4,049 nt of DNA from a virus (IMGVR_UViG_2713897054_000010:1-4049), one strand, 5' to 3'. Positions 1 to 582 are shown, numbered from the stretch's first letter. Numbers and translations are program-made. The notes: generated by a model not told the origin, from the letters alone.

Positions 1-151
1 CGATGCCATTGCCCGGGCGGAAGACGTTGTGTTGTGCCTGTCCGGGATGATCGAAGCTGTTCGTCCGGATACTGATATTACTGAAGTGGCGAAAAATAAC
101 GCGCTGACTGATGATGATTTTTCTGCGGGAAAGTCTTCGACGGCGAGCTGA
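1..151 (+). CDS. G: Tail assembly chaperone G, C-terminal fragment (5' end lies upstream of the window)
   Basis: Frame beginning at nt 2 reads DAIARAEDVVLCLSGMIEAVRPDTDITEVAKNNALTDDDFSAGKSSTAS and stops at TGA 149..151. It resembles the C-terminus of lambda gpG as I recall it, sits immediately upstream of the T-frame ORF, and contains the conserved slippery heptamer near its 3' end. Confidence 0.85.
   Translation, partial: DAIARAEDVVLCLSGMIEAVRPDTDITEVAKNNALTDDDFSAGKSSTAS
127..133 (+). other. Programmed -1 ribosomal frameshift slippery heptamer G GGA AAG (G to GT recoding site)
   Basis: GGGAAAG at 127..133 lies in the zero frame of G as G|GGA|AAG, 16 nt upstream of the G stop codon. The -1 frame is open from nt 118 and continues into the T ORF to 582. 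Same heptamer and same position relative to the G stop as in the lambda G/GT site. Confidence 0.85.
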
Positions 152-582
152 ACTTTGCCCTCAGACTGGCGCGTGAGATGGGGAGACCCGACTGGCGCGC
201 CATGCTTGCCGGGATGACATCCACCGAATATGCCGACTGGCGACGTTTTTACCGCACGCATTATTTTCATGATACCCAGCTGGATATGCATTTTTCCGGG
301 CTGACGTACGCTGTACTCAGCCTGTTTTTTTGCGATCCGGATATGCATCCCTCTGATTTCAGTCTGCTGGCACCCCGACGTGATGATGAGCAGACGGAGA
401 TGCCGGATGAGGACGATATGCTGATGCGGAAAGCGGCAGGACTTTCTGGTGGTGTCCGCTTTGGGGCTGACGGGAAGGAAATCGTTACGGTCAGTGATGA
501 CATGCGGAGCAGTACAGAGGATGAAGCCATGCTGATGATGGTGTCTGAGGTAATTCCAGGAGGTGTACGCTATGGCGGGTAA
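133..582 (+). CDS. T: Tail assembly chaperone T segment, expressed only as the G-T fusion (gpGT) by -1 frameshift
   Basis: The -1 frame read from the slip site gives VFDGELNFALRLAREMGRPDWRAMLAGMTSTEYADWRRFYRTHYFHDTQLDMHFSGLTYAVLSLFF...GGVRYGG, stopping at TAA 580..582. This closely resembles lambda gpT. There is no credible Shine-Dalgarno before the internal ATG at 178, consistent with expression by frameshift only. Confidence 0.85.
   Translation, partial: VFDGELNFALRLAREMGRPDWRAMLAGMTSTEYADWRRFYRTHYFHDTQLDMHFSGLTYAVLSLFFCDPDMHPSDFSLLAPRRDDEQTEMPDEDDMLMRKAAGLSGGVRFGADGKEIVTVSDDMRSSTEDEAMLMMVSEVIPGGVRYGG
557..562 (+). promoter_or_regulatory. Shine-Dalgarno sequence (AGGAGG) for tape measure gene H
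   Basis: Perfect AGGAGG with 9-nt spacing to the ATG at 572. It lies inside the 3' end of the T reading frame. Confidence 0.6.

Follow-up and report, generated by a model that had tools for sequence, protein, structure and literature searches.

A probable lambda-type programmed -1 frameshift cassette for the tail assembly chaperones of an Stx2c prophage, with a candidate downstream stem-loop

The -1 programmed frameshift that yields the gpG and gpGT proteins of bacteriophage lambda was reportedly described by Levin, Hendrix and Casjens (1993) and by Xu, Hendrix and Duda (2004, 2013, 2014). The lambda slippery sequence is GGGAAAG, on which the ribosome slips back one base in the phase G_GGA_AAG. 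About 96% of ribosomes stay in frame, and tail assembly depends critically on the resulting G:GT ratio of ~30:1; of the two parts, G binds the tape measure protein and T the major tail protein, and the slip is sensitive to the mnm5s2U34 modification of tRNA-Lys (PMC3296357, PMC5009743, PMC7618472). Both products are required for tail assembly yet are absent from virions (PMC5009743, PMC3296357). Here we analyse a stretch of viral DNA of 4,049 nucleotides (IMGVR_UViG_2713897054_000010:1-4049; hereafter the window, numbered from its first letter), in whose source genome overlapping G and T open reading frames (ORFs) sit between a tail protein gene at the V position and the tape measure gene. We document the anatomy, homology and conservation of this cassette and find no start of its own for T. 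On these sequence comparisons we read the site as a programmed -1 ribosomal frameshift of the lambda-type tail assembly chaperone pair, with a probability of roughly 0.93. A G/GT cassette of the lambda type is a feature already known, and the sequence is already in RefSeq.

The heptamer GGGAAAG is present once on the + strand of the window, at 127-133. The G frame, which is frame 2, reads through it as GGA (128-130) and AAG (131-133) and ends ...DDDFSAGKSSTAS at the stop TGA (149-151). The phase of the heptamer is therefore X_XXY_YYZ, and 15 bases (134-148) separate it from the G stop. In the -1 frame, no stop intervenes between a TGA at 115-117 and the TAA at 580-582; the open stretch, which begins at 118, reads FFCGKVFDGELNFALRLAREMGRPDW... 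A preliminary description of this DNA had reported the heptamer and the open -1 frame from 118 to 582, and direct reading gives exactly the same position, phase and limits. It had also placed the heptamer 16 nt before the G stop, which holds only if one counts from base 133 to base 149, and had predicted the junction ...SAGK-VFDGEL..., which matches the conceptual product of a -1 slip.

The chromosome of E. coli STEC2017-197 (NZ_CP075663.1, 1329135-1333183, minus strand) is 100% identical to the window. Full-length G from this source genome scores 169.5 bits against PF06894 (cut-off 27; E = 3e-50) and 161.3 bits against TIGR01674 (cut-off 74.45), and T scores 51.2 bits against PF06223 (cut-off 25.9) and 197.3 bits against TIGR01715 (cut-off 77.35). 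On the conceptual GT fusion of 287 aa, TIGR01674 aligns over residues 1-138 and TIGR01715 over residues 143-252. At the C-terminus of T, the motif ..[DA]MLM...(A)G..GGVR[FY]G occurs twice, at window positions 415-465 and 526-579 (DMLMRKAAGLSGGVRFG and AMLMMVSEVIPGGVRYG), and the T proteins of N15/phi80-type phages and VT1-Sakai end after the first copy. The pattern suggests that the extreme C-terminal motif was duplicated internally in lambda-type T.

The closest described system is lambda itself. Alignment to a lambda record shows that the stretch TTCTGCGGGAAAGT, which comprises the slip site and its flank, is identical in the two, with the G stop at an equal distance of 15 nt; the heptamer G_GGA_AAG, its phase and the V-G-T-H-M-L gene order are likewise the same. 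T is ~79% identical to its lambda counterpart in DNA over 120-576 and ~74% identical in protein, and the Pfam and TIGRFAM families of the cassette agree with those of lambda. The differences lie around this core. The C-terminal ~40 codons of G are strongly diverged in DNA, the ~120 nt of G before the lambda-identical stretch being poorly alignable to lambda, and similarity returns ~10 nt before the heptamer. T of the window carries a 4-codon insertion, and its GT fusion has 287 aa, compared with 279 aa in lambda. The tape measure protein H has 877 aa, whereas lambda H has 853 aa, which would make the tail slightly longer than that of lambda if length scales with H.

The extents of the DNA matches differ between phage types. 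Lambda-type phages match over 120-576 only, those of the 1720a-02/Stx2_95 type over 130-697, and Stx2a phages and PhiR12_2 over 1-473, giving mosaic boundaries at window positions ~118-130 and ~473; it follows from these extents that DNA similarity to lambda starts ~10 nt before the heptamer. The N-terminal region of H (572 to ~700) is diverged from lambda, together with the C-terminus of T. The conserved slip site may be where different alleles of G and T are joined by recombination.

We scanned viral contigs with the T segment and obtained 80 loci, to which lambda was added to give 81. Every one of them (81/81) has GGGAAAG in this phase and at this 15-nt distance from the G stop. Taken with the gene order, the protein families and the lambda-identical slip site, this bears out the view of the preliminary description that the locus has the conserved recoding arrangement of tail assembly chaperones. 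More distant homologues, with other lysine heptamers, extend the comparison. At the equivalent codon pair, phi80, LLS, HK225/N15-type phages and many Enterobacteriaceae prophages carry G_GAA_AAG, and the phi80 and LLS records label this the slippery sequence and annotate a joined coding sequence (CDS). Further sites at the equivalent place are A_AAA_AAG in VT1-Sakai, G_GUA_AAG in Pantoea prophages and C_CCA_AAA in one Vibrio phage. Phi80 gpG-T, LLS, HK225/N15 and VT1-Sakai share with the window a homologous T domain (GK[AV][LF]..EL.F.L.LARE[FM]GRPDWRAMLAGM); the phi80/N15/VT1-Sakai-type systems have in addition a putative slip site at the equivalent codon pair and the same predicted downstream stem-loop architecture. 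They differ from the window in the heptamer itself, as do the Pantoea prophages, and in T, which in the phi80/N15/VT1-Sakai type is shorter and lacks the second C-terminal ..LM....GGVRYG repeat.

Two points weigh against a programmed frameshift. The annotation in RefSeq, made by the Prokaryotic Genome Annotation Pipeline (PGAP), gives T as a separate CDS from ATG178 (178..582) without a GT fusion, and GGGAAAG alone occurs at chance frequency, with ~0.72 copies expected per window on both strands and at least one copy in 104 of 200 shuffles. We dropped the motif count as evidence for the slip site because the motif is not enriched relative to shuffles, and the case thus rests on phase, position and homology. 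Both points would suit T being an independent gene that starts at ATG178 or ATG202, either de novo or by re-initiation after the G stop, with the heptamer incidental, and as the G stop lies only 26 nt before ATG178, re-initiation by terminating ribosomes is physically conceivable. There is, however, no Shine-Dalgarno (SD) sequence before ATG178. The best anti-SD duplex there reaches only -2.3 kcal/mol, compared with -11.6 for H (which has a strong SD, AGGAGG), -7.8 for M and -7.2 for L, and with a window-wide median of -4.3 kcal/mol; that T has no ribosome-binding site of its own had been claimed from the sequence beforehand, and this claim stands. ATG178 and the sole SD-like run (GGGGAG, 180-185) also lie inside a predicted stable hairpin, which is considered below.

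The coding signature of T also begins before its first ATG. In a set of 32 diverse relatives, the mean pairwise difference at the three T-frame codon positions is 0.16/0.16/0.36 over 152-177, a region 3' of the G stop and 5' of ATG178, and this matches the signature found inside T (0.17/0.10/0.45). T-frame amino acids and third-position periodicity are conserved from the heptamer on, ahead of any ATG, and the TIGR01715 alignment begins 11 codons upstream of ATG178. The codon at ATG178 is Phe (TTC) in N15/phi80-type relatives, and the first ATG shifts from one relative to the next, lying between codons 15 and 45 counted from the upstream stop. In the lambda literature, moreover, the two products are gpG and the gpGT fusion (PMC5009743). 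Given the lack of an SD, the periodicity before ATG178, the start of TIGR01715 and the unconserved ATG, independent initiation of T is very improbable. ATG178 is probably not a real start, and these comparisons suggest that the T frame must be entered by translation from upstream of the first T ATG.

A fusion could in principle also arise during transcription, if RNA polymerase slipped on a run of A and inserted or skipped a base. The window heptamer (GGGAAAG) has only three A in a row, whereas polymerase slippage needs considerably longer runs, and this makes such a route unlikely here; six A in a row do occur in a VT1-Sakai-type relative. Some tail-chaperone and secretion-system genes rely on transcriptional slippage at long homopolymers (PMC5009743, PMC4256274), but in lambda the effect of tRNA-Lys U34 modification on the same heptamer points to the ribosome (PMC3296357). 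We therefore regard the chance that the polymerase makes the fusion in this prophage as negligible.

For ribosomal frameshifting, lambda provides the model of slippage, slippage rate and chaperone function. The majority of ribosomes would read G through GGA-AAG and stop at the TGA, giving a gpG of 143 aa. A few percent would move one base back on G_GGA_AAG, with the P-site tRNA-Gly re-pairing from GGA to GGG and the A-site tRNA-Lys(mnm5s2UUU) from AAG to AAA. These slipped ribosomes would go on to read ...SAGK-VFDGELNFALRLAREMGRPDW... as far as the TAA, producing the gpGT fusion of 287 aa. If the lambda roles apply, the shared G part would bind the tape measure protein H and the T part would recruit the major tail protein, so that the frequency of slipping would set the G:GT ratio, at the ~30:1 needed for a tail of correct length.

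We also analysed the RNA downstream of the heptamer, where the folding predictions suggest an irregular stem-loop. Compared with shuffled sequence, the 85 to 100 nt that follow the heptamer form a much more stable predicted fold (z = -3.65 and -3.67), with a minimum free energy of -39.5 kcal/mol for the 85-nt fold (z = -3.67). A predicted outer helix (141-148/204-211) begins 7 nt past the heptamer, and a predicted inner hairpin (167-202) is composed of the pairs 167-174/195-202, 176-177/192-193 and 179-182/187-190. The inner hairpin would enclose ATG178 and the SD-like run GGGGAG, with ATG202 at its base. Independent folds of lambda, VT1-Sakai, HK225, phi80 and one prophage each of Entomohabitans and Trabulsiella have the same architecture (z from -2.8 to -4.2), as does a Kluyvera prophage with a weak z of -1.7, and in Entomohabitans the outer helix is a perfect 10 bp.

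Pairing and synonymous change were compared over the 32 aligned relatives. Standard pairs fill 83.5% of the pair cells, compared with 21-44% when the partners are slid. Double changes are found at six pairs, and the covariation score was reached by none of 500 shuffles. Covariation is clear at one pair, 142/210, where 22 sequences have A-U and five have G-C, the 3' change being a synonymous change in an Ala codon. Synonymous differences are suppressed in the stem, at a rate of 0.25 in stem codons compared with 0.47 in the rest of T (p = 4e-4), and codons predicted to be unpaired also stand at 0.47. In a sliding window the synonymous minimum falls at 145-171 (0.16, compared with 0.39 overall).

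The position of the predicted stem-loop is compatible with a stimulatory role, since stimulatory structures start 5-8 nt downstream of the heptamer and the 7-nt spacer is inside this range (PMC4066793). In published reporter measurements, bare G_GGA_AAG slips at 0.277% (PMC4066793, Table S3); the moderate IS911 stimulators raise this to 3.80%, and the IS3 pseudoknot to 43% (PMC4066793). Set against the ~4% natural rate in lambda, the value for the bare heptamer makes a moderate stimulator plausible. The E. coli dnaX and IS911/IS3 signals, in which an X_XXA_AAG heptamer is followed at 5-8 nt by a 3' stem-loop or pseudoknot, share with the window a lysine A_AAG slip site, putative in the window, for the single E. 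coli tRNA-Lys, and the candidate 3' structure of the window, at 7 nt, is within their range. They are unlike it in three respects: the window has no SD-like stimulator upstream, its structure is a predicted long interrupted stem with an 18-nt 5' internal loop, and the efficiency expected of its site is only a few percent. An upstream stimulator of the dnaX/IS911 style was looked for in the interval 6-17 nt 5' of the heptamer (GATGATGATTTTTCTGC) and none was present, in agreement with Table S8 of the same survey (PMC4066793).

Several results weigh against the stem-loop as a stimulator. RNAalifold on all 32 sequences fails to recover it (consensus energy -2.75 kcal/mol), and it is lost in the five most distant sequences; relatives from Pantoea, Proteus and K. 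spallanzanii lack it. The evidence from covariation is thin, at about two independent events. The stems were drawn post hoc from the fold of a single member, and the synonymous-site minimum lies on the 5' side only, at 145-171. Moreover, the hairpin of the gpG cluster in Sharma et al. is no better than its local background (ddG/nt 0.020; PMC4066793). That hairpin, listed in Table S8 of Sharma et al. (2014) for the gpG cluster G_GGA_AAG_4, has a predicted length of 54 nt, a 7-nt spacer and a presence in 51% of genes (PMC4066793). With this smaller hairpin already listed, the stem-loop is not entirely new, only mildly so. A search of Rfam (E <= 10 over 1-700) gave no frameshift-element family, all hits being snoRNA and miRNA noise below threshold, and the reviews consulted on lambda G-T neither state nor deny a 3' stimulator.

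Since RNAalifold fails on the full set of 32, we put the stem-loop forward as a hypothesis for the lambda/N15/phi80-type subgroup only. Under this hypothesis, the structure at 141-211 would lift slippage to a few percent, where the bare heptamer stays below one percent, and, as a side effect, would bury the internal ATGs at 178 and 202. We hold it tentatively, at somewhat less than even odds, that the classic G/GT slip depends on a conserved interrupted stem-loop of 71 nt, common to lambda-, N15- and phi80-type Enterobacteriaceae phages, that would tune G:GT to ~30:1 and hide the internal ATGs and SD-like run of T. The coordinates of the cassette, the candidate structure and the surrounding genes are collected in Table 1.

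Table 1. Coordinates of the features discussed, as positions in the window unless otherwise marked; source-locus numbers refer to the source prophage, where 20178-20582 corresponds to window 178-582.
Feature	Coordinates	Strand	Basis
Slippery heptamer G_GGA_AAG	127..133	+	sequence; identity to lambda site; conservation in 81/81 related loci
Open -1 frame, putative T segment of GT decoded from 133	118..582	+	translation; PF06223/TIGR01715; codon periodicity
G 3' end, last 49 codons and stop TGA (149-151)	2..151	+	translation; source annotation gpG
First T-frame ATG, PGAP start of free-standing T	178..180	+	annotation
Predicted irregular stem-loop, candidate 3' frameshift stimulator	141..211	+	fold, relatives, covariation, synonymous suppression
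H, tape measure protein, 877 aa	572..3205	+	ORF; PF06791 and PF09718; annotation
M homologue, minor tail protein, 109 aa	3202..3531	+	PF05939, E 1e-37; annotation
L 5' part, minor tail protein L, cut by window end	3531..4049	+	PF05100, E 6e-64
Tail protein (V position)	source locus 18951-19700		annotation
gpG, full gene	source locus 19720-20151		annotation
T, free-standing as annotated	source locus 20178-20582		annotation
Tape measure	source locus 20572-23205		annotation
DUF4224 gene, partial halves	NZ_CP075663.1 1365181-1365324 and 1404075-1404185		annotation

According to the source-genome annotation, the window comes from a prophage that carries stx2c (Stx2 A subunit, Stx2c B subunit). The same annotation lists lysis genes, terminase, portal, a protease-capsid fusion, tail terminator and tail tube, followed in the tail block by gpG, T, tape measure, M- and L-type proteins, gpJ and tail fibres, with the gene order V-G-T-H-M-L as in lambda. 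The start of H overlaps the end of T by 11 nt. Besides STEC2017-197, four further E. coli genomes match the window at an identity of at least 99%, and related copies of lower identity are present in 3,749 of 5,426 complete E. coli genomes. The promoter scan found no promoter-like sites, and the five terminator-like matches, a number within shuffle expectation, all fall inside H or L on the minus strand; neither result bears on G/T. Minus-strand ORFs under T (78-224 and 267-530) have no support and were taken as shadows of the coding strand.

The state of the prophage bears on whether the cassette is in use. Just upstream of int, on the yccA side of the Stx2c prophage, a DUF4224 gene is split into two halves ~38.7 kb apart, and between them lies a Mu-like prophage whose genes include transposase, Mor, Gam, baseplate and tail genes, a prophage nested in a prophage. 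The gap also holds DUF6645, DUF1378 and DUF826 genes like those found downstream of stx. One may ask, then, whether the cassette is intact but a relic, in a prophage that no longer makes particles and in which the frameshift has no present function. With the ~38.7 kb Mu-like prophage in DUF4224, the excised genome would far exceed the capacity of a lambdoid head, and Shigella flexneri has a decayed copy of the region in which the heptamer is kept and the T frame broken. Even so, a recent insertion would leave the mechanism in place, with the genes still expressed on induction; the morphogenesis genes, from terminase to tail fibres, are all annotated as intact, G, T, H and M are uninterrupted, and the copies in five E. 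coli genomes are at least 99% identical. We consider it unlikely, on balance, that the cassette is a relic.

In the Shigella flexneri copy (CP182557.1, 601-720 of the extracted locus), GGGAAAG is kept, indels break the T frame (...GELISP followed by a stop) and the G frame is extended; it is a decayed cassette and an example of a remnant. The tail module of the window, judged by its reading frames, is not decaying. The preliminary description had argued as much from the intact cassette together with uninterrupted H, M and L: H and M are indeed uninterrupted in the window, whereas L exits at the window end and is complete in the source genome (source locus 23531-24229). Its further step to a functional module stands as far as an undecayed tail module is concerned, but given the Mu-like insertion a fully functional phage does not follow.

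The searches also brought up misplaced lambda sequence. Lambda-identical G-T occurs on short or low-coverage contigs labelled Neobacillus, Oceanobacillus, Pseudomonas, Kitasatospora and Chromatium, and likewise under the labels Shewanella, Leeuwenhoekiella, Enterococcus, Paenibacillus and others; in these assemblies it is almost certainly laboratory lambda DNA contamination. The record MW057783.1, 'Campylobacter phage CJLB-4' (host Campylobacter jejuni), has lambda-like G, T and H with an identity to the window equal to that of true lambda records, and may be mislabelled or contaminated.

The GT fusion is absent from the RefSeq annotation of this prophage, whereas the phi80 and LLS records do have a joined CDS. 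The missing fusion probably reflects an omission that is systematic in the annotation of E. coli prophages, of which there would be thousands. An intact cassette helps in recognising tail modules that have not decayed, as opposed to remnants like the Shigella copy. Should the stem-loop 3' of the heptamer act as proposed, the mechanism of one founding example of programmed frameshifting would be refined, and the setting of the G:GT ratio would be explained.
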